From a virus: DNA of 38,606 nucleotides. Shown here piece by piece: positions 7,610 to 32,415 of the stretch (within the stretch, counting starts at the first letter, position 1; every line of letters begins with the position of its first letter). The notes beneath the pieces were generated by a model, which had not been told where the DNA came from, did no database searches, and saw only the letters and a program-made list of their open reading frames with translations. The stretch is taken from UHGV virus genome UHGV-0211288. The stretch is one strand, 5' to 3'. A program made the position numbers and the translations under genes.

Positions 7610-7648
7610 TATTTCTATAAAAGTCTAAGAAAGATAGGAGTGAAATTG

Positions 7649-8245
7649 ATGGCTACATTTAATTTAAAAAAACGTAGAGAAGAACTGAATTTATCGCAAG
7701 AATCTGTCGCTGAATCTATTGGCGTTACAAAAGCAACTGTAAGCAAGTGGGAAAAAGGCGATATAGCTAACATGAAAAGAGACAAGATCGCTTTATTAGC
7801 AAAAGTTCTCAAAGTTAGCCCTTTAAGCATCTTGGGATTAGAGGATGTTAGTGACAGTGATCGAGTGATGATTCCTATACTAGGAACAATAATGTGTGGT
7901 GAACCAATTTTAGCAGAAGAAAATATCGAGGGTTATAGAGAAGAGATTGCTGATTTCTTACCATCTGGCGAATTGTTCTTTCTCAAAACAAAAGGTGACA
8001 GCATGGTACCTACAGTGCCTGAAAAAAGCTATGTTTTGCTGAGAAAACAAGAAGATGTCGAAGATGGCGAAATAGCTGCAGTCATAGTTAACGGGGATAA
8101 TGAAGCAACCCTAAAACGAGTAAAAAGACAAAATGGAATAGTTATGCTTATTGCAGATAACAAAGATTATAGTCCAATATTAATTACCCCTGAAAATCCA
8201 GCTCGCATTATTGGTAAAGCTGTTAAAGTTAGCTTCGATCTATAA
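7649..8245 (+). CDS. CI-like phage repressor, N-terminal XRE HTH plus C-terminal S24 (LexA-like) autopeptidase domain
   Basis: HTH ELNLSQESVAESIGVTKATVSKWEKG. C-terminal S24 features include GDSMVP (Ser nucleophile) and a downstream Lys in TLKRVKRQNGIVMLIADN. The ATG at 7649 is preferred over the track start at 7640 (GTG) because an AGGAG RBS lies 8 nt upstream. Confidence 0.8.
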   Translation: MATFNLKKRREELNLSQESVAESIGVTKATVSKWEKGDIANMKRDKIALLAKVLKVSPLSILGLEDVSDSDRVMIPILGTIMCGEPILAEENIEGYREEIADFLPSGELFFLKTKGDSMVPTVPEKSYVLLRKQEDVEDGEIAAVIVNGDNEATLKRVKRQNGIVMLIADNKDYSPILITPENPARIIGKAVKVSFDL

Positions 8246-8626: not shown

Positions 8627-9982
8627 TTGCAACGAGTAGCAATTTATATGCGTGTATCGACTGATCAGCAGGCAAAACATGGTGACAGTTTAAGAGAACA
8701 ACAAGAAACATTGGATGAATACATTAAGCGAAACAAAAATCTTAAAGTTGTAGATAAGTATATTGATGGCGGGATATCAGGTCAAAAATTAAATAGAGAC
8801 GAATTCCAGCGACTACTAGATGACGTGAAAAACGATCAAATAGACCTAATACTTTTTACGAAGTTAGATCGCTGGTTTCGTAATTTAAGGCACTATTTGA
8901 ACACTCAAGAAATTTTGGAAAAACACAATGTTTCATGGAATGCCGTGTCTCAACAATACTACGATACAACTACAGCTTATGGCAGAACTTTTATCGCACA
9001 AGTAATGAGCTTTGCTGAATTGGAGGCACAAATGACTTCTGAAAGAATCAAATCTGTTTTTTCAAACAAAATCCAGCAAGGTGAAGTTGTTAGTGGGAAA
9101 GTACCTTTAGGCTATAAGATTGAAAACAAAAGGTTAGTTCCCACTTCTGATAAAGATATTGTGATAGATTTATTTGATTATTATGTTCGAGTTGGATCTT
9201 TGAGAAAAACAACGACTTATCTAGAAGAAAAACATGGAATAGTTCGAGATTATCAAAGTGTTCGAAAACTTTTAACCAATGAAAAATACATCGGCAAACT
9301 TCGAAATAATACAAACTATTGCGAACCTATTATCGACAAAGATATTTTTGAAACAGTTCAACTAAGGCTATCTCAAAATGTAAAAACTAGCGGTTCACAC
9401 GATTATATTTTTAGGGGACTTGTTCGATGTGCGGATTGTGATGGCAGCATGTCTTGTTCAACTTTAAAATCAAAGTATATAAAAAAGACAGACGGAGAAG
9501 TATCATATTACATTCGGTCTTGTTACAGATGTACCAGACGAAGGAACAACCCTACAAGATGCAAAAATAAAAAGACTTACTATGAGCGAGCATTAGAACG
9601 TTACTTGCTAGATAACATACAAACGAATATTGCTATGCATGTACGAACATTGAAAAAAGAAGTAACAAAGAAAGATTCAGTAAAAAGAAAAAAAGATGCT
9701 CTTTTCGTAAAAATCGAAAGATTAAAAAAAGCCTATCTTAACGAAATCATTGAGTTAGATGAATATAAACGAGATAGAGAATTGTTGGAAAACGAAATAG
9801 CTAGTTTAAAAGAGCCTAAAATCAATAAAAACATAGCTCCTTTAAAAAAAGTTTTGAGCGATGACTTCTTTGAAAAATACGAAAAAGCTTCAATTAATCA
9901 AAAAAATGAGTTATGGCGTTCAATAATAGAATCAATAGAGGTTAGTGTTGATGGAAATATCACTATTAATTTCTTGCCCTAA
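8627..9982 (+). CDS. int: large serine recombinase (phage integrase)
   Basis: 451 aa. N-terminal resolvase-type catalytic motif AIYMRVSTDQQ and conserved LDRWFRN, a recombinase domain, and a Cys-rich zinc-ribbon region (CADCDG...C..C). The annotated start is TTG. Confidence 0.85.
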   Translation: MQRVAIYMRVSTDQQAKHGDSLREQQETLDEYIKRNKNLKVVDKYIDGGISGQKLNRDEFQRLLDDVKNDQIDLILFTKLDRWFRNLRHYLNTQEILEKHNVSWNAVSQQYYDTTTAYGRTFIAQVMSFAELEAQMTSERIKSVFSNKIQQGEVVSGKVPLGYKIENKRLVPTSDKDIVIDLFDYYVRVGSLRKTTTYLEEKHGIVRDYQSVRKLLTNEKYIGKLRNNTNYCEPIIDKDIFETVQLRLSQNVKTSGSHDYIFRGLVRCADCDGSMSCSTLKSKYIKKTDGEVSYYIRSCYRCTRRRNNPTRCKNKKTYYERALERYLLDNIQTNIAMHVRTLKKEVTKKDSVKRKKDALFVKIERLKKAYLNEIIELDEYKRDRELLENEIASLKEPKINKNIAPLKKVLSDDFFEKYEKASINQKNELWRSIIESIEVSVDGNITINFLP

Positions 9983-18277: not shown

Positions 18278-21200
18278 CTAGTTAAAATACTCATTTTTAT
18301 TTTGATCTCTCGCTTCTTTTCGTTTAACTGTCGTGTAAATCTTATCTCCAACAATTTCATTGTGAACATAGATTTCATCCTTTTTGAGTTCCGATTCTGC
18401 GATATCTCGATCCATTTCATCAGTCAAGGTACTGATATTTTTATTAGTGAAAGTAGTATCTCCAACCATCACTGCTTCTACTTGGTACTGCTGCGCTTTG
18501 ATTATAGAACCGAATTCATTAGCCTGCTTAGTTACGAATCCAAACATCGCTTGCATACCTAACCCAAGCCCTTTTCCTAACATTTCACCCATCCATGTAG
18601 TAATTCTTGAAGGAGAATGAATATCAAGTGCTCGTTGGAGCGTCCTTCGTACATTGTAAGCAATGCTATTTGCAACGCTATAAATATACCCCGATGAACT
18701 CGAAAGGCCACTAGCAAGACCAGCGCCTGCATAATACCCAATACTATTCATCTGATAGCGAAGACTTGAAAAAGCAGAAACAATTCTTGATGATGAGTTT
18801 CTCGCTGTAGACACCATTCGATTCATTCCAGTGTTGAATGTTGAAACCATTTGCGAAGTGCTACTACTAATCGACCGAGTTGCTTGACTCATAGACTGTG
18901 TACTTGCCTTGCTGACACTAGAAAAACCTTTATTTACTGTATTAGATACTCTTTGCATCGCACTTGAAGCAGTTCGTTCCATATTTTGCATAGATTGACC
19001 CACATTACGAGCCATTGAAGTGATCTCTTTTGTCGAATTCTGATTAATTCCAGAAGTGCTACTGTTTACATTATTTTGCATCGTATTCGCAGCACTTGTA
19101 GCGTTCTGTGTTGCTGTATTCATGTTGCTAGTAACGCTAGATTGTAGACTACCTAAAGAGCTTGTTACATCACTGGCCATCGCAGAATAGTCACTAGTCG
19201 TATTAGATTTTGCATTCTTAGCGGCTTTTGTTGCATCCACCGAAGCAATGCTGCTTAAATCTGATACTGAGTTTTGCATGCTAGACATTGATTTACTAAC
19301 GCTAGAGTTTGCTGTACTAAAACTGCTTGCGACTGATTGAGTAGCTGACTGTGTATCAGAATCCATTTCATCGCCTTTGGATTTTGATTTGCCGGTGATT
19401 GTATCCCACAAACTACCAAATCCATTCTTGATTCCATCCCATGCGCCTTTTAAAACTCCAGGGATAGCTTCTAGAACACCGCTCGCAAGAGATTTAACAA
19501 TATCCCAACCAGCAGCTAAAATACTAGGCAACATTTGAATGATAGTTGCTACCAATGACATGATAATTTGAATACCACTTGAAATGATATTAGGTAGATT
19601 TTGTACTATACCGCTAACTAAAGCTTGGATAATCTGAACCGCTGCTTGTAAGATCATTGGTAAATTTTGCACAATGAAATTACATAAGGCTTGAACGATT
19701 TGAACTGCACCGTTCAACAATTGAGGAATGTTAGCCATCAATCCATTGATTAAAGTCAAGATCGCATTCAAAGCTACTGGGAGTAACTGAGGTAACAATT
19801 GTGTTAATCCATTAATTAAACTTAATAGAATTTGAATACCGGTCTGAATAATCTGTGGTAGATTTGAAACAATATTTCCAACAAAAGCTTCTAGAATTTG
19901 TTGCACTGAACTAACGATTTGCGGAATATTTTCTACAATACCGTTGATTAAGCTTAGCAATAAATCCATACCCATCACTATCAATTGTGGCAATGCGCTT
20001 GCTAATGATGTCAGTATAGTTGTAATAATTGTCAAAGCTGAACTAATTAAAGAAGGTAGATTTTGAGCCACACCGCCAACTAACGATCCAATAACGTCTA
20101 CACCAGCTTGAACAATCAATGGCAACATTGTGGCAATCGTATTTGCTAATTTACTGATCAGCTGTGTACCGCTACTTATAAGTTGAGGTAATTGTGACGT
20201 AATCCCTTGAACAAATTTAGAAATTACTTCAGGACCTTTTGTCGTGACCATTTTTAACAAATCATCAATTTGAGATCCAAACTGATTATTTACTAATCCA
20301 AGTCCGGCGACAACAAGCCCTAAAATTGCTGCAGGTCCAACGGCTGCTAAGGCAACTTGCATGATCGTAGCCATTGCAGAAGTCATGCCGCCTAGCGCAC
20401 CCATTCCTACAGTAGCCGCAGAAGAAAGTCCACCACCGATTTTAGGAAACAGACCAACTAATCCGCTCACGTTTCCGGATACTAAACCGAAAGCTGAACT
20501 TAACGGACCAGATAAAATACCAGAAAAATTAATAAATCCTGTTGACAAAGTTTTTAGAACTGGCAAAGCGCTGTTTAGAGTTAATGCACCACCCAATAAT
20601 CCAGCTATTGGAAGAATCCCAGAGATTACACTCTGCATATTTTTCAAAGACTCGCTAGACATCTCAGTGCCATTGACAAAATGATCTAAGATTGGAATAA
20701 CACTATCAATTGCATTGTTAATCTTGTCCATATTGAAATCACCAATTTTATCGGTGATCTTACTAATGGCATCAATCCCAACTTGGGAAAGTTTATCAAA
20801 TGACGGTTGCAATTTATTTGTTAGAGTCTCTCGCAGACCATCCATTGCTTGCCCAACAGTTTTATACTCAGTCGCCATTTTGCTAAATGTGTCATTGGTT
20901 CCTACCTTCGTTATAGCATCAAAGAAATCTTGGGTCTTGATTGTACCGTCTTGAACAGCAGTGACCATTTCAGACGTTGACATTCCCATTTGTTTCGCAA
21001 CAGCAGCGATCCCGGCAGGTGTTTGTTCTAACATTAACTTAAAGTCTTGCCATTGAACCATTGGCTTCGCAGCCATTTGAGTAGCTTGTTGACTTAAAGT
21101 CGTCATAGCTTGCGTTGGATTTTCAGCGGCTGCTGCCAAACCACCAAATCCCATTACCAATTTATCCGTGTTTTTAATACCAACTGCAGCCAACTGACTA

Positions 21201-21961
21201 TATGTCGTAGCCATTTCGGAAGCTGAATAGATTGTTTGAGTTGCGAAGTCTTGTAATTCTTTTTTTACACTAGCAATTTCCTTTTTCCCCATGCCAATGT
21301 TTTCCATATTGGCATTGAACGTTTTCCACGTTGCAGACCCTTCATTGAGATCTCCAACTAATCCTGTAATAGCACCCGAGATCATTGATATTCCCTTTTG
21401 TGCTATTGCATAGGCTGCACCAATTCTAGCAACTTTTTTGATTAATCCGCTAGTGGCATCTGTTACATCATTTGTTTTAGATCCCATTTTGCTTAGTGCA
21501 GATGCTGCTTTCGTTCCAGCTTTGTTGAAAGCATTAGTTAACCCACTACCAACCTTGGTACCAATTGAGGTTGTAGTTTTCACTATCCCATTCAAGCCTT
21601 TTGCAACTAGGCTCGAAGTTTCGCTTGCAGCTTTTGAGACAACTCCAAAGCCTTTTTTTATGGGCTGAGGAATTTTTTCACCGATAGATGCGATTACTCG
21701 TTGAATTTGACCCCCTGCAGCACTAAAAGGAGCAACCATGCTTGTTTTTAATCCGTTTAATTTTGAAGGAATAGTAGAGCTTAATTGTCCCATAATACTT
21801 CCAACCCTTGAAACAATGCTATTTGTACTATTAGTCATGCTAGACTGCACTTTACTCATTGCCGAAGTAGTGCTACTAACGACCTCTGACATTGCCTTTT
21901 TATAGTCTCCAGTATCTGCTCCAATCAAAGCCTTAATGGATCCGGTAATGCTTCCTGACAT
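18278..21961 (-). CDS. tail tape measure protein
   Basis: 1227 aa, Ala/Gly/Ser/Thr-rich with long helical repeats and hydrophobic segments. Directly follows the G/G-T chaperone pair. RBS AGGAGGTGA upstream. Confidence 0.85.
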   Translation of the reverse strand: MSGSITGSIKALIGADTGDYKKAMSEVVSSTTSAMSKVQSSMTNSTNSIVSRVGSIMGQLSSTIPSKLNGLKTSMVAPFSAAGGQIQRVIASIGEKIPQPIKKGFGVVSKAASETSSLVAKGLNGIVKTTTSIGTKVGSGLTNAFNKAGTKAASALSKMGSKTNDVTDATSGLIKKVARIGAAYAIAQKGISMISGAITGLVGDLNEGSATWKTFNANMENIGMGKKEIASVKKELQDFATQTIYSASEMATTYSQLAAVGIKNTDKLVMGFGGLAAAAENPTQAMTTLSQQATQMAAKPMVQWQDFKLMLEQTPAGIAAVAKQMGMSTSEMVTAVQDGTIKTQDFFDAITKVGTNDTFSKMATEYKTVGQAMDGLRETLTNKLQPSFDKLSQVGIDAISKITDKIGDFNMDKINNAIDSVIPILDHFVNGTEMSSESLKNMQSVISGILPIAGLLGGALTLNSALPVLKTLSTGFINFSGILSGPLSSAFGLVSGNVSGLVGLFPKIGGGLSSAATVGMGALGGMTSAMATIMQVALAAVGPAAILGLVVAGLGLVNNQFGSQIDDLLKMVTTKGPEVISKFVQGITSQLPQLISSGTQLISKLANTIATMLPLIVQAGVDVIGSLVGGVAQNLPSLISSALTIITTILTSLASALPQLIVMGMDLLLSLINGIVENIPQIVSSVQQILEAFVGNIVSNLPQIIQTGIQILLSLINGLTQLLPQLLPVALNAILTLINGLMANIPQLLNGAVQIVQALCNFIVQNLPMILQAAVQIIQALVSGIVQNLPNIISSGIQIIMSLVATIIQMLPSILAAGWDIVKSLASGVLEAIPGVLKGAWDGIKNGFGSLWDTITGKSKSKGDEMDSDTQSATQSVASSFSTANSSVSKSMSSMQNSVSDLSSIASVDATKAAKNAKSNTTSDYSAMASDVTSSLGSLQSSVTSNMNTATQNATSAANTMQNNVNSSTSGINQNSTKEITSMARNVGQSMQNMERTASSAMQRVSNTVNKGFSSVSKASTQSMSQATRSISSSTSQMVSTFNTGMNRMVSTARNSSSRIVSAFSSLRYQMNSIGYYAGAGLASGLSSSSGYIYSVANSIAYNVRRTLQRALDIHSPSRITTWMGEMLGKGLGLGMQAMFGFVTKQANEFGSIIKAQQYQVEAVMVGDTTFTNKNISTLTDEMDRDIAESELKKDEIYVHNEIVGDKIYTTVKRKEARDQNKNEYFN

Positions 21962-21966
21962 CTATC

Positions 21967-22449
21967 TCACCTCCTATTTCTAAAGTGTTCCAAAGCTTTC
22001 AAAGCTTTATCCAAGCGCTTGTTACCTTTTTTCGTTTGTTTAGCATTTCGATCAAATGCTTTCTTAATTCGATTTTCTGCTGATTTTTTATTAATAATTT
22101 TTTTCATTTGTGGCTTTTTAGCATTTAAGATATAGCGCAAATTAAATCCAAAAATAGCATTTTGTTCCTGTTTGTCTAATTCACGCAAACTCAAGCCTTC
22201 AAGAATTGCTTCAAGTTCCCATAAGTAACAATTCATAATCAAATCAATATCAGTTAAACCATACCTTGCACAGTTGACTATGAGATCTCTTTCGTGATTC
22301 TTTCCGCTAATTTCTTCAACTCGTCCGCTTGAAGCTTCGACTCTTCCGTTTCTCGAGCCGCTATAACTTTGTGAGCTTTCTCCAGATTCTCCTTGTATTT
22401 GCGGATCTTGCTCACGAAAAAACCTGATGCTAACATTTCTTCTTTCAGA
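21967..22449 (-). CDS. T-frame of the tail assembly chaperone, expressed as a G-T fusion by -1 frameshift
   Basis: The -1 frame relative to G is open from 22449 to the stop at 21967, overlapping the last ~57 codons of G (hand translation). The track shows only the 91-aa part after an internal TTG. Confidence 0.5.
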   Translation of the reverse strand, partial: SERRNVSIRFFREQDPQIQGESGESSQSYSGSRNGRVEASSGRVEEISGKNHERDLIVNCARYGLTDIDLIMNCYLWELEAILEGLSLRELDKQEQNAIFGFNLRYILNAKKPQMKKIINKKSAENRIKKAFDRNAKQTKKGNKRLDKALKALEHFRNRR

Positions 22450-22751
22450 TCAGCAAAAATTTGATTATAGGCTTCCTCTTCACCCATTCCGCTATTAACA
22501 AGATTGTCTGTATAATTTTGTACAGCTTCTAAAACATCATTTTCGGTAAAATTCTTATCGACAAGTTGTAACAAGTTGACTAAAGCATCATCTTCTTTCT
22601 CTAGAACTTGAACAAAAAGAATCCCGGCACCATCGTTTTGAGAATTTCCATCCGCATCTTTTGATGCTAATTTTTTGTTAGCCTTAAAATTTAAAGCGTA
22701 GTTGAATTTGATATTGCAATCTTTGTTTTTTACTTTGATATCAAAAGACAT
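22278..22751 (-). CDS. tail assembly chaperone G (157 aa)
   Basis: Acidic protein between the major tail protein region and TMP. Contains the slippery heptamer T_TTT_TTC in frame. Confidence 0.65.
   Translation of the reverse strand: MSFDIKVKNKDCNIKFNYALNFKANKKLASKDADGNSQNDGAGILFVQVLEKEDDALVNLLQLVDKNFTENDVLEAVQNYTDNLVNSGMGEEEAYNQIFADLKEEMLASGFFVSKIRKYKENLEKAHKVIAARETEESKLQADELKKLAERITKEIS
22416..22422 (-). other. programmed -1 ribosomal frameshift slippery site U UUU UUC (codons GGU UUU UUC of G)
   Basis: Seen directly: plus-strand GAAAAAA at 22416-22422. The heptamer is in X_XXY_YYZ register in the G frame, and the -1 frame is open downstream to 21967. Confidence 0.5.
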
Positions 22752-22784
22752 TTAACCATTCCTCCTAAATAAGAAAGAGCCAGT

Positions 22785-23660
22785 CTAACGACTAACTCTT
22801 TTAATTGCTTCCACATATTTTGCTGACGCTTTTCTTTTATTAACAAAAGATAGATCATCTTCAAATGGTGATGTATCAACGTACTTGCCTTTAAAGAATA
22901 GATCGCGATCTTTTTCGGTTACTCCTGCATTATGAAGAATTTTTACTTGTTTACATTTCTCAATTGAATCCGTAGAAAAGCAAAAAGATAATTCTTCGTG
23001 GATTTTAGGTCCAACATTGAAATACATCATATTCCAAAGTTGCGCCCACATTTCAGCAGTCCATTTTTGAATGTTGCTATTCACTTTTTTAAAGTATTGA
23101 TAAAGACGATTTGAATCGAAATAAACTTTTTTCCAATACTCCGCTCTAGGATTCTTTATAACCCACTGTGCACCACCAGAATTAAAATTAATAGTTTCCA
23201 ACGATTCCACTGAAACATTTACGATCTCAGCCATACCTTTCAAAATAGATTCTCCATTTTCACAACTGCGAATATAATCAAGATTTAGGTAGTGGTTGCA
23301 ATCACTGCAATACCAAACATCTTCTTTTGAAGTCATTTTACGCAAATCAATCTTTTGATTGAAAATGACATCCGAATCAATATAAACATACCGCTCTTTT
23401 TCACGTTTAGGATCTTCTTTCAGGTATTGCCACCACAGATAAGGCTTGATAGAAGGAACATATCCTTTATCCTCTCTATCATCTCTATATACGTGAACCT
23501 CAACATTGTATTTATCAGCTAAATAAGCAGGAATTGTTGAATCATGTTCGCTAAAAAGCAATACAATATCATTGATTCCTAATGATCTCAAGTTGGTCAA
23601 ACAAACTTCTAGCTCCCACTTAAAACGCTTGATAGCAGGCTGACAAAGAATATATTTCAT
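22785..23660 (-). CDS. putative nucleotide-sugar glycosyltransferase (DxD motif) embedded in the tail module
   Basis: 291 aa from the ATG at 23660 (RBS AGGTGAG). Contains YIDSDVIF (hydrophobic-DxD). Starts 10 nt after the major tail protein stop. No structural-protein features. The track start at 23669 is GTG. Confidence 0.4.
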   Translation of the reverse strand: MKYILCQPAIKRFKWELEVCLTNLRSLGINDIVLLFSEHDSTIPAYLADKYNVEVHVYRDDREDKGYVPSIKPYLWWQYLKEDPKREKERYVYIDSDVIFNQKIDLRKMTSKEDVWYCSDCNHYLNLDYIRSCENGESILKGMAEIVNVSVESLETINFNSGGAQWVIKNPRAEYWKKVYFDSNRLYQYFKKVNSNIQKWTAEMWAQLWNMMYFNVGPKIHEELSFCFSTDSIEKCKQVKILHNAGVTEKDRDLFFKGKYVDTSPFEDDLSFVNKRKASAKYVEAIKRVSR

Positions 23661-23669
23661 TTTTCTCAC

Positions 23670-24293
23670 CTACTCCTGCGTCGTCGTTGTGGTGGTAGTT
23701 GCTTGTGTTGTTGTCGTAGTCGTTTGAATGTTACCGTAATCCCCAGTTGTTTCACCAGGATTTTGGTAATCATATAAAGCTTCAATAGCAGCAATATCTT
23801 CATCAGACAACGGAAACTTCCCTTCCTGCAGCTTTCCAATGATATTTAAGGTATAGGAAGCTTCAACAAGATCATCGCCATCCTGAATTTCTACATCATC
23901 TGGCATACCATACCCAAATTCTGCCGGATACAATTTATAATCTTTACCAGACACTTCTTCAGCCGCATCTTCATCTATTTCAACGCGCCATACCTTTACT
24001 GAAGTACCATTCTTCTTGGCATCCTTTACAACTTTAATTGCTTCGTCTTTTGACATATAATACTGCGTTAAATCGATTGAATGTTCATCAGTAGATTTGA
24101 TAATGATACGTCCCATTTTGGTTTGTTCATCAATATTTTCACCACCGTAAGTTACTCCACCTTCAGTTTGCCAAGCTGGCAATAGTCCTGGAGAACCAAT
24201 TTCTGCTTTAACAGACTGGATAAAATACCAAACTTTCTTTGCAGTCAATGGTTTACCAGAAAATTTTTTAACGCCATTGTTCACATCTGCCAT
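23670..24293 (-). CDS. major tail protein with Thr-rich C-terminal extension
   Basis: 207 aa in the canonical position. The C-terminus ends ...NIQTTTTTTQATTTTTTTQE. Confidence 0.75.
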   Translation of the reverse strand: MADVNNGVKKFSGKPLTAKKVWYFIQSVKAEIGSPGLLPAWQTEGGVTYGGENIDEQTKMGRIIIKSTDEHSIDLTQYYMSKDEAIKVVKDAKKNGTSVKVWRVEIDEDAAEEVSGKDYKLYPAEFGYGMPDDVEIQDGDDLVEASYTLNIIGKLQEGKFPLSDEDIAAIEALYDYQNPGETTGDYGNIQTTTTTTQATTTTTTTQE

Positions 24294-24305
24294 TGTTTAT
24301 TCCTC

Positions 24306-24656
24306 CTAAATAATTAATTCATTTGTTCTAAATACAACATGATAGACTTCTCTACCAATTGAATTATCAATCATCACTTGATGAGTAATTCGTTTATTTA
24401 ACGCAACTTTTGTTTTAAATATTGCTTCTTCTAAGCTAGTCCGGCTATCAATTGGATAGTACAAGTCAATTTGTAGACTTGTATCAACAATGGCTGGTCC
24501 GAACTTAGCACTTTGTGAATCATCCCCAGAGTGTGTACCTATCACATAAAAAGGCTCCTTGACACTTTCATCAGGAAGTTTGAATTCTACCGATATTCCA
24601 GTAGTCGATAACTTATCAGAAAGCTTTTTGAGATATTCTGTCATTGGAGAGTACAC
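24306..24656 (-). CDS. tail terminator / tail completion protein (putative)
   Basis: 116-aa ORF directly upstream of the major tail protein gene; call is positional. Confidence 0.45.
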   Translation of the reverse strand: MYSPMTEYLKKLSDKLSTTGISVEFKLPDESVKEPFYVIGTHSGDDSQSAKFGPAIVDTSLQIDLYYPIDSRTSLEEAIFKTKVALNKRITHQVMIDNSIGREVYHVVFRTNELII

Positions 24657-24660
24657 ATAA

Positions 24661-25005
24661 TCATCCCCTTACTAATTTGGTAAGCCGCTTTTGAAGTATC
24701 GGCCAATCTGCTTTTAGTGCAGGAAATAAGAAAGGCTGTGCAAACATGAATCGTGTACCCATCTCTACAAAAATAGAATACTCGGCTGGAGAAATAACTT
24801 CCGCTTGCATCAATCCAACGACGCTAGCATAGATATTATTCGACATCCATCCGGTATCCCAAGGAGCCATTTTCTTACTCCCCTTTTCTACACGCAAACT
24901 AGACAGCTTAATTTCTTGGTCAATTGCTTTCTCTAATTGTGGTGCTTTTCGTTGTACGTTTCGGACGAATTGCTTCATACCTTTTATTCTGACGCTCTTA
25001 CTCAT
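24661..25005 (-). CDS. neck/tail component (HK97 gp10-like, putative)
   Basis: 114-aa ORF; call is positional within the head-tail joining cluster. Confidence 0.4.
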   Translation of the reverse strand: MSKSVRIKGMKQFVRNVQRKAPQLEKAIDQEIKLSSLRVEKGSKKMAPWDTGWMSNNIYASVVGLMQAEVISPAEYSIFVEMGTRFMFAQPFLFPALKADWPILQKRLTKLVRG

Positions 25006-25283
25006 GTGAGAATCACCACCGTTGAATTACGATGCCACTTAGTTGAATAAACAGATCGCTCCAGACCGTCATATTCAATTTTAGAAAATCCTTTGTGGAT
25101 TCCTTGAATATGCAATTTGAACGCCTTCTGATTGTACTTTCCGAAAATCCCGATTTGCTCATTACTTGATAACCCAGTTTTGCCACAAGGTTCAATCGTT
25201 TCCTTTTCCTCGATGGTATCTTCGCCAAGGTAGCCAGGGACTTTTTTCTCAAAGGTTATCTTGACACGATCATTGTAATTCAA
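25002..25283 (-). CDS. head closure / head-tail adaptor protein (putative)
   Basis: 93-aa ORF; call is positional. Overlapping start/stop codons with neighbours. Confidence 0.45.
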   Translation of the reverse strand: MNYNDRVKITFEKKVPGYLGEDTIEEKETIEPCGKTGLSSNEQIGIFGKYNQKAFKLHIQGIHKGFSKIEYDGLERSVYSTKWHRNSTVVILT

Positions 25284-25633
25284 TAGATAAACCTCGTAAT
25301 GCCTTTACCAGCACGAATTGCAGGCTTAGTATATTCGTCAAAGATATCCATGTATTCATTTAAATAAGAAGGCTCCCATGAATAAGATCGTCCTTCCTCA
25401 CTATCTGCAGTGGTCCCTTCACTGTTGCGTTTATTAAAACGCTTGATAGCGACATCTCTATGAATATAGACCAGATCATCCGGAATAGCTTTGTGTTTTT
25501 CGGTATCATTTTTGGCAGCGAATTGGTTCAGTACGGATAAGATCCGTTGCTCGCTGTCCTTGATAATCAGGTTAAGCAAGGGATCTTGTACCGTATCTTT
25601 TATGCCGAGAAATAACTTGATATCTTCTAGCAT
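25280..25633 (-). CDS. head-tail connector protein (gp6-like, putative)
   Basis: 117-aa ORF immediately after the MCP gene. Confidence 0.5.
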   Translation of the reverse strand: MLEDIKLFLGIKDTVQDPLLNLIIKDSEQRILSVLNQFAAKNDTEKHKAIPDDLVYIHRDVAIKRFNKRNSEGTTADSEEGRSYSWEPSYLNEYMDIFDEYTKPAIRAGKGITRFIY

Positions 25634-25647
25634 TTCTATCCCCTACC

Positions 25648-26625
25648 TTATGCTTGTGTTGTTGTAGTGGTCGTAGTCGGTTGTGTTGTAGTAGTCGTAG
25701 TTGCCGATTCAATCGTTGCTTCAACAACGCCTGCAGGAATTTCCGGGAACAAGACTAATGCATTCATGAATAGTGATTCGTAAGTTGCATTGCGCAATGT
25801 ACGTCCGCGAGTAGCAGAAATGAACCCTGTTTCATCTGTGAAATCTACAAAGATATCACCTAGATCGCTAGCTTTCATATCCAAATAAGCTAATACGAGA
25901 TTGTCAACCGCAGTTGAATAAACTTTACCTTCTGGAATTGCGTTTAATACAACAACGTTAGTAGCTCCCAAGAAGTTTTTCAGCAACGTCATTCCAAAAA
26001 CATTCGATGCATCAGCTAAGACTTTTGTGTCACCAAGATATGTCGCTGCATCCATTGGATTAATAAATGAAACGAATTGTGCACCGTCAAACTCTTCAAA
26101 TGTGCTTAATTTTCCCCAAGATTGAGCCAATGCTTTTTGCAATCCATCTGCGGTAATTTTTGTTGGCGCTGTGCCTAAAAAGTCAACAAATTTTGTTTTA
26201 ATTCCACCTTGGATTTGACGTAATAATTTATTATCAGCTTGATCAATTGCTAATGAGGCTCCATGACGAGCAATCGATTCAGCAGTCACAGCACGACGCC
26301 ATTTGTTAAACGTTACTTGATAAGACTTATCTTTTGCACGAGTAACTTTAGATAGAGGAATGTCTTCACCTTCTGCGACATTTCCAGATTTTAAATCAGT
26401 CGTCCATTTGTACATTTGGATTTTCATATCACTCGATAATGGTTCTAAACGTGTAACGCCCAACAGTTCAAGTAATTCTTTGATACCGGCTTCAAATCGG
26501 TTAACAAAATCGATCGACTTGATTTCCCCAAGATCGTCCATGGTTGTTAATCCATCTTCTGCAGCAAAAAATTGTAGTTGCATTTTCATGAATCGTTTTT
26601 TATTTGTTTTTGACATGTTTTTCAT
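25648..26625 (-). CDS. major capsid protein with N-terminal LQFFA motif and Thr-rich C-terminal extension
   Basis: 325 aa following the scaffold gene. N-terminus MKNMSKTNKKRFMKMQLQFFAAEDG. C-terminus ATTTTTTQPTTTTTTTQA. Confidence 0.8.
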   Translation of the reverse strand: MKNMSKTNKKRFMKMQLQFFAAEDGLTTMDDLGEIKSIDFVNRFEAGIKELLELLGVTRLEPLSSDMKIQMYKWTTDLKSGNVAEGEDIPLSKVTRAKDKSYQVTFNKWRRAVTAESIARHGASLAIDQADNKLLRQIQGGIKTKFVDFLGTAPTKITADGLQKALAQSWGKLSTFEEFDGAQFVSFINPMDAATYLGDTKVLADASNVFGMTLLKNFLGATNVVVLNAIPEGKVYSTAVDNLVLAYLDMKASDLGDIFVDFTDETGFISATRGRTLRNATYESLFMNALVLFPEIPAGVVEATIESATTTTTTQPTTTTTTTQA

Positions 26626-32370: not shown

Positions 32371-32415
32371 TTAAAATCACACTCCTTTGCACAACGTCTC
32401 TAAGGTAGATAAAAA

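Follow-up and report, generated by a model that had tools for sequence, protein, structure and literature searches.

The window analysed here is a stretch of 38,606 nucleotides (nt), the virus genome UHGV-0211288, which belongs to a temperate siphovirus with an Enterococcus-type host. In the region from 22785 to 26625 all genes lie on the minus strand, and they include those of the major capsid protein (MCP), the major tail protein (MTP) and a predicted glycosyltransferase. Both structural proteins end in a short threonine-rich extension, referred to below as the poly-Thr tag, and we examined whether the tags and the transferase could constitute a virion O-glycosylation system. The features of the locus are the following (lengths of proteins in amino acids, aa; ORF, open reading frame).

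25648..26625, minus strand: MCP gene, 325 aa (phrog_544 major head protein, E 1e-70)
25651..25704, minus strand: poly-Thr tag of MCP, A-T6-Q-P-T7-Q-A-stop, read from the sequence
23670..24293, minus strand: MTP (tube) gene, 207 aa (phrog_238, E 7e-50; TIGR02126, TP901-1 family, E 2e-24)
23673..23723, minus strand: poly-Thr tag of MTP, T6-Q-A-T7-Q-E-stop, read from the sequence
22785..23660, minus strand: predicted GT-A (GT8-like, retaining-type) glycosyltransferase gene, 291 aa; the ORF extends to a GTG at 23669
23370..23384, minus strand: codons of the DxD motif, Y96-I-D98-S-D100 (294-aa numbering), with D98 and D100 invariant
22932..22934, minus strand: codon of H246 (in ILHNAG), candidate third metal ligand as in GT8, an invariant column in 43 homologues

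The poly-Thr tags and the predicted transferase

A previous sequence-only reading of this DNA had pointed to near-identical Thr-rich tails on MCP and MTP, and the translated ORFs bore this out. The C-terminus of MCP was ATTTTTTQPTTTTTTTQA (given with ORF 25648..26625 as ...IESATTTTTTQPTTTTTTTQA) and that of MTP was TTTTTTQATTTTTTTQE (given with ORF 23670..24293 as ...NIQTTTTTTQATTTTTTTQE). The two tags, 17-18 residues long, shared the layout T6-Q-x-T7-Q-x-stop. When the whole window was translated in six frames, runs of at least five threonines were found in only four places, namely the T6 and T7 blocks of both tails. From composition, about 0.001 T6 runs would be expected, and the tails are not a product of chance. 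At the DNA level the two tail-coding stretches were identical at only 41 of 63 positions and the differences were synonymous, indicating that their similarity has been kept at the protein level and does not stem from a recent DNA duplication. Homology of MCP to relatives without the transferase gene ended at ...VVEATIE, directly before the tag, and the MTPs of such relatives ended right after ...GETTGDYxxI. The MTP of the window was ~36% identical to the SPP1 major tail protein. Each tag was a low-complexity Thr tract outside the folded core, and its presence or absence tracked that of the transferase gene.

The sequence-only reading had also singled out a protein of 291 aa with a hydrophobic-DxD motif, encoded behind the MTP gene and ahead of the tail assembly chaperones, and both the motif and the position were confirmed. 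The likely start of the gene is the ATG at 23660, preceded by an AGGAG and separated from the MTP stop by a gap of 9 nt, and the first chaperone gene follows at 22278..22751. The protein contains the sequence RYVYIDSDVIF. In an alignment of 43 homologues (52-74% identity) D98 and D100 were invariant, as was H246 within I-L-H-N-A-G, followed downstream by the invariant K260-G261; this second motif was compared with the HxxGxxKPW-like motif of GT8, and from the sequence H246 is a candidate metal ligand. An AlphaFold2 model built from the same alignment (pLDDT 96, pTM 0.92) consisted of a single Rossmann-like alpha/beta/alpha GT-A domain, with the DxD at the end of the fourth strand, directly after beta-strand 93-96, as in GT-A enzymes. 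Foldseek returned 231 matches in the PDB at E<=1e-3, and the matches listed were GT-A glycosyltransferases, led by WbbM, UGGT, glycogenin, LgtC and GT6 enzymes. Against viral models, the best matches after the family members themselves were GT8 proteins of giant viruses and cyanophages. The structure prediction thus returned a GT-A fold, and not a non-transferase fold, for a protein that had been called glycosyltransferase-like on its letters.

Sequence searches placed the enzyme outside the curated glycosyltransferase families. It was 99% identical to a protein annotated in Enterococcus gallinarum and matched PHROG 4417 ('unknown function') over its full length (E 1.2e-148, residues 4-293 on profile positions 1-292 of 293). 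No Pfam match was obtained at E<=0.01, including Glyco_transf_8 (PF01501), nor any NCBIfam match; phmmer against the PDB gave nothing useful, and the family profile found no glycosyltransferase among PDB sequences. The sole PDB match of that profile, a kinetochore protein at E 0.12, was dismissed as spurious. With hhalign, the family profile aligned its DxD on the FMDAD motif of an approximate glycogenin sequence at a non-significant E of 0.19, which serves as no more than a hint. Identities to GT8-type retaining GT-A enzymes (glycogenin, LgtC, GlyE) and to further structural neighbours (UGGT of GT24, WbbM, GT6, Skp1 alpha-GalT) were 8-15%. The GT-A fold and the DxD motif are therefore those of a retaining GT8-like transferase, yet by sequence the enzyme is no member of GT8 and forms a separate family, currently PHROG 4417.

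Coupling of the transferase gene to the tags

A megablast of the 5-kb region against GenBank phages gave no match, so that searches at the protein level were needed. We examined 87 loci carrying the gene: 80 from IMG/VR (65-99% identity) and seven GenBank phages (47-66% identity), namely iLp84, CHPC836, VPE25, Staphylococcus phage vB-SscS-F1, Semele, Clostridium phage FA88 and Arcanobacterium phage TPWB06. A run of at least six threonines was encoded on the same strand within 4 kb of the gene in 86 out of 87, and the density of such runs was 0.36 per kb near the gene compared with 0.008 per kb farther off. None was found in 13 related loci without the gene (185 kb).

Closely related phages allowed the same comparison within a clade. 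Among 21 IMG/VR loci whose MCP core was 84-98% identical to that of the window, 12 carried the gene and all 12 were tagged on both MCP and MTP. None of the other nine was tagged, their proteins stopping shortly past ...VVEATI.. and ...GDYxxI... Streptococcus phages Javan46 and Javan163, with MCP 64% and MTP 52-59% identical to those of the window, likewise had neither gene nor tags. A second clade repeated the pattern: locus L075 carried the gene and the tags, and both were absent from Lactobacillus phages Silenus and phiJL-1, whose MCP and MTP are 69-76% identical to those of L075. In locus L112 the chaperone and tape-measure genes were 99-100% identical to the window (100% for the chaperone pair), identity fell to 85-87% for MTP and MCP, and neither the transferase gene nor any tag was present; this mosaic pattern indicates that the gene and the two tags travel as one unit.

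The converse search started from the tags. The DNA pattern for T7-Q-[A/E/D]-stop occurred in only 93 IMG/VR stretches; 80 of these loci were examined, the gene lay within the stored stretch in 67, and most of the others were fragments of contigs known to carry it. Two high-GC actinophage loci with a T7-Q-x-stop pattern (L131 and L166) were set aside as chance matches because the pattern ends no listed ORF of at least 70 aa there. Altogether, the coupling of enzyme and tags in these genomes is strict, and this comparative evidence is decisive; a link that the sequence-only reading had guessed from one genome is strongly supported by presence and absence across relatives. As an additional observation, the mosaic junction lies at the boundary between transferase and chaperone genes (L112 3069-5444 compared with window 18278-24293).

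The tags were not tied to one kind of protein. Tagged MCPs belonged to three unrelated PHROG families (phrog_544, phrog_10 and phrog_840) and tagged MTPs to two (phrog_238 and phrog_117), and small Thr-repeat proteins were tagged too. The transferase gene adjoined whichever gene bore the tag: the MTP gene in phages like that of the window, the MCP gene in CHPC836 and a large group of E. faecalis prophages, and the gene of a small Thr-repeat protein in iLp84, Semele, the Sextaecvirus phages and loci L062, L063 and L070. Hence the placement of the transferase gene inside the tail operon, as first described, holds for the window, while elsewhere the gene sits behind a capsid gene or a small Thr-repeat protein. 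The latter proteins (~90-145 aa, phrog_14018) begin with a short N-terminal domain, the rest being almost pure T7-x-x repeats, are encoded directly upstream of the transferase gene, and may be dedicated glycan-carrier decoration proteins that act beside or instead of capsid tags. Their genes are located as follows.

L081 6504-6881: small Thr-repeat protein (iLp84_8)
L085 11649-11996: small Thr-repeat protein (Semele)
L084 9563-9925: small Thr-repeat protein
L087 9720-9926: small Thr-repeat protein
L062 7281-7718: small Thr-repeat protein
L063 8871-9230: small Thr-repeat protein
L070 1783-2205: small Thr-repeat protein

These data bear on whether the tags are glycosylated at all. Poly-Thr tags could instead be unglycosylated hydrophilic spacers or brushes, the transferase acting on another phage or host protein or on a small molecule, with both parts sharing a mobile cassette for reasons that have nothing to do with each other. 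Thr/Ser low-complexity tracts do serve as linkers in polysaccharide-binding proteins (PMC6821194), and glycosylation of the tags is a prediction. Nevertheless, the near-perfect coupling in both directions and across unrelated capsid and tail families, the position of the gene next to whichever protein is tagged (MCP, MTP or Thr-repeat protein), and the joint gain or loss of the gene and of the tags on MCP and MTP among related genomes make the spacer explanation quite improbable.

A second question is whether the enzyme initiates glycosylation. It could be linked to the tags without initiating, in which case a host enzyme would add the first sugar and the phage GT8-like enzyme would extend it, or the glycan could be built up processively as by glycogenin. 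The host genera of the module were Enterococcus, Lactobacillus, Lactococcus, Staphylococcus/Mammaliicoccus and Clostridium, and between these five genus groups it moves with this one enzyme only. Since it travels with a single enzyme, a self-sufficient enzyme is the easier explanation; direct glycosylation of Ser/Thr by retaining GT-A enzymes is a familiar reaction, as in large clostridial toxins, Legionella Lgt1 and polypeptide GalNAc-transferases. We therefore regard dependence on a host initiating enzyme, or glycogenin-like build-up, as unlikely.

A putative virion glycosylation system

We consider it likely, from the gene sequences and the structure model, that the module comprises a cytoplasmic, phage-encoded O-glycosyltransferase that decorates the poly-Thr tags of virion proteins. 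All the computational tests made support this proposal of the sequence-only reading. The gene layout is relevant here, and two further features delimit it downstream.

22278-22751 and 21967-22242, minus strand: tail assembly chaperone pair, downstream border of the module (Phage_TAC_12 for 22278-22751; phrog_183, phrog_2567)
22774..22801, minus strand: terminator-like hairpin with a 12-pair stem, from a consensus scan only and with a weak consensus match

Genes for a head-tail adaptor, a small minor head protein (phrog_348), tail completion and the tail terminator lie in between MCP and MTP, and 3' of the transferase gene the chaperone pair is followed by the tape measure gene. The hairpin and the stop codon of the transferase gene overlap, upstream of the chaperone gene; its place after the transferase gene would put the transferase, MCP and MTP genes in one transcription unit. 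By gene content the 38.6-kb window is a complete temperate siphovirus, with a serine integrase, a CI-like repressor, a RecT/SbcC-type recombination module, terminase, portal, an SPP1-like head module, Dit, Tal, holin and endolysin. It has the appearance of a whole, circularly permuted temperate phage genome (1-38606), the genes for the integrase (8627-9982) and the repressor (7640-8245), both on the plus strand, lying between the lysis and replication modules and the replication genes appearing to run on across the window ends.

In a temperate phage, the enzyme might modify envelope glycopolymers of the host (teichoic acid or cell-wall polysaccharide) for superinfection exclusion, like TarP or gtr-type conversion genes. 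There are known cases of phage receptors being altered by GT-A enzymes that prophages encode, and the integrase and repressor mark the phage of the window as temperate. However, the gene stands in the late structural operon, 9 nt past the MTP stop, with the only terminator-like hairpin downstream of it, a position that is of neither the lysogeny nor the moron type. The transferase sequence showed no evident hydrophobic segment, and the model was a single well-folded globular domain. Moreover, the gene is also found in large (85-139 kb), probably virulent phages (VPE25, Sextaecvirus and the herellevirus Semele), which argues against a role in lysogenic conversion. Modification of the envelope would also leave the coupling to the tags unexplained, and we judge it very unlikely. 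Least probable of all is glycosylation of phage DNA to evade restriction, as by the T4 glucosyltransferases. Phage glycosyltransferases acting on DNA do exist, but the alpha- and beta-glucosyltransferases of T4 have a GT-B fold, as opposed to GT-A here, no gene for a hydroxymethylase or for other base hypermodification turned up among the annotated ORFs of the window, and again the Thr tags would be left without explanation. On the grounds of fold, gene position and tag coupling, DNA glycosylation and lysogenic conversion were rejected as main explanations.

Under the proposed O-glycosylation of the tags, a soluble cytoplasmic GT-A enzyme, retaining and GT8-like in fold and bearing a DxD motif, would be made alongside the late proteins during late gene expression and would take a nucleotide sugar of the host as donor. 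It would glycosylate threonines, the presumed acceptors, in the tags (T6-x-x-T7-x-x-stop) at the C-termini of MCP and MTP. Given the retaining GT8-like fold, the donated sugar is expected to be an alpha-linked hexose or N-acetylhexosamine (HexNAc), and either a mono- or an oligosaccharide product would fit. The tags are add-on modules at termini that would be directed away from the particle, so that a mucin-like coat made up of thousands of glycosylated threonines would cover the virion. Its likely benefit would be that the particle surface is shielded, be it from antibodies, proteases or host surface binding; alternatively, adhesion to mucus or cell-wall glycans may be altered.

Precedents exist in mycobacteriophages. 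According to the summary of Freeman et al. 2023 (Cell Host Microbe 31:1216) in PMC12363180, Che8, Corndog and Myrna add glycans to the subunits of capsid and tail tube with transferases of their own, which shields them from antibodies, and in Corndog the transferase genes lie inside the structural operon (PMC4351075), as in the window. The common ground is a phage-encoded transferase, here a predicted one, for the two most abundant surface proteins, with shielding from antibodies as its proposed role. The systems differ in that Che8 has three transferases and Corndog additionally an O-methyltransferase, whereas profile annotation of the window found one enzyme and neither an O-methyltransferase nor an additional transferase; the hosts are Actinobacteria in one case and Firmicutes in the other. 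The window enzyme had no BLASTP match to Che8 gp108-110 at E<=10, and hmmsearch of the family profile against these proteins with all filters off gave E values of 0.5-0.8 with negative bit scores. It is thus probable that the module works like the Che8 and Corndog systems without being one of them, having an unrelated enzyme family and a different acceptor tag.

Other systems share single elements. The pathway for serine-rich-repeat adhesins (GtfA/B with Gly/Nss/GlyE; PMC5207161) resembles the module in its low-complexity Ser/Thr acceptor, its host group, its cytoplasmic location and its GT8-fold enzymes, and O-glycosylation of Ser/Thr-rich disordered regions occurs in streptococci (PMC12041528). 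Those pathways are cellular; their substrates, secreted or membrane proteins, have long repeats, and several enzymes take part. The module, in contrast, combines a C-terminal tag of 17-18 residues, virion proteins assembled in the cytoplasm and a single phage-encoded enzyme. Chlorovirus PBCV-1 also glycosylates its capsid with virus-encoded transferases, but it is a eukaryotic giant virus with atypical N-linked glycans and many enzymes, of which A064R (PDB 2p6w) is only a distant fold relative of the window enzyme. An extra module at the C-terminus of a tail-tube protein of the same family is also seen in SPP1 gp17.1* (FN3 domain) and lambda gpV (Ig-like domain), where it is a folded domain instead of a disordered, presumably glycosylated poly-Thr tag.

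Several points weigh against O-glycosylation of the tags. The enzyme lacks a sequence-level match to a curated glycosyltransferase family, so its assignment comes from the predicted structure. It is the only transferase among the annotated ORFs of the window, and no further sugar-related or sugar-nucleotide genes were found among them (annotation up to position 32,400). Outward exposure of the C-termini is drawn by analogy to SPP1 gp17.1* and to capsid display in T7: the C-terminal extension of the SPP1 MTP is displayed on the tube surface, and surface display in T7 makes use of the C-termini of HK97-fold capsid proteins. In Che8 the C-termini of the capsid and tail proteins read ...NKTGS and ...YSDGS with no poly-Thr tag, and the mycobacteriophage precedent therefore does not cover a poly-Thr acceptor. 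The single locus of the 87 outside the rule, Clostridium phage FA88, has weaker tags, with T4-T5 blocks on three proteins, and in Semele the transferase gene lies outside any recognised structural module. Finally, the co-occurrence counts are partly non-independent, as many loci are close relatives, and the clean within-clade contrasts number two.

Spread of the module and its significance

Homologues of the transferase were present in GenBank (77 phage records), in IMG/VR (565 confirmed stretches) and in about 870 clusters of a protein library at 50% identity. Such a system had been expected to be unusual and poorly described in low-GC Firmicutes phages; these figures show that it is not rare and has simply gone unannotated. 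No description of virion glycosylation in Firmicutes phages, of a function for PHROG 4417 or of poly-Thr tails on phage proteins was found in the searchable literature (subscription literature not covered), and reviews of natural capsid glycosylation up to July 2026 cite mycobacteriophage work only. Natural glycosylation of phage virions is so far documented for only a few mycobacteriophages; new here are the enzyme family, the acceptor tag and the host phylum, under the same principle.

Distant members of the family were fused to PqqD/RRE, radical-SAM+SPASM or Glyco_transf_7C (a second glycosyltransferase) domains or to a methyltransferase (P0168, P0176, P0164 and P0241, with E values of about 1e-59 to 1e-66 to the family profile). 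These fusions fit an enzyme family acting on peptide or protein substrates and on glycan elaboration, and suggest RiPP-like peptide modification outside phages. On balance, we favour the view that a portable two-part glyco-tag system is common to Firmicutes phages, made up of a hitherto unrecognised family of GT8-like protein O-glycosyltransferases (PHROG 4417) and a short poly-Thr tag that could be grafted onto any exposed virion protein, be it the capsid, the tail tube, the portal or a dedicated Thr-repeat decoration protein. The two would give virions of gut, dairy and skin phages, Enterococcus phages studied for therapy among them, a mucin-like glycan coat; the enzyme family would also have been recruited to RiPP-like clusters via PqqD and radical-SAM fusions.

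Some observations were made in passing on individual loci. The portal of Clostridium phage FA88 (L086 1440-3026) had a Thr-rich tract at its C-terminus, and the Sextaecvirus-type prohead proteases (L084 3047-4162 and L087 4918-6039) had an internal block of four T6-T7 repeats near theirs; surface exposure of these proteases in the mature virion is not obvious. Annotation splits the MTP of Staphylococcus phage vB-SscS-F1 (L084 7773-9475) in two, and the 888-nt ORF that separates the pieces may be an intron or homing element within the MTP gene. Gene order and T-rich tails of TPWB06 (L087), for which an actinobacterial host is on record, nearly matched those of the Mammaliicoccus Sextaecvirus phages (L084), and that host assignment looks doubtful. 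A transferase homologue was also seen in a Chryseobacterium phage, and a paper on Elizabethkingia anophelis lists a 'prophage pi2 protein 34' (PMC8768576); the family may reach the Bacteroidota.

If the proposed O-glycosylation is correct, glycosylation of virion proteins would be widespread among the phages that infect Enterococcus, Lactobacillus, Lactococcus, Staphylococcus/Mammaliicoccus and Clostridium, hosts that matter for the gut, dairy fermentation and phage therapy. It would give a function to a sizeable PHROG now listed as 'unknown' and would explain why capsid and tail proteins show odd masses or are poorly covered by peptides in proteomics. It would also matter for how therapeutic phages are neutralised by antibodies, cleared and held to mucus, and the enzyme and its tag would constitute a minimal, genetically portable pair with which to glyco-engineer phage particles or other proteins in the cytoplasm of bacteria.

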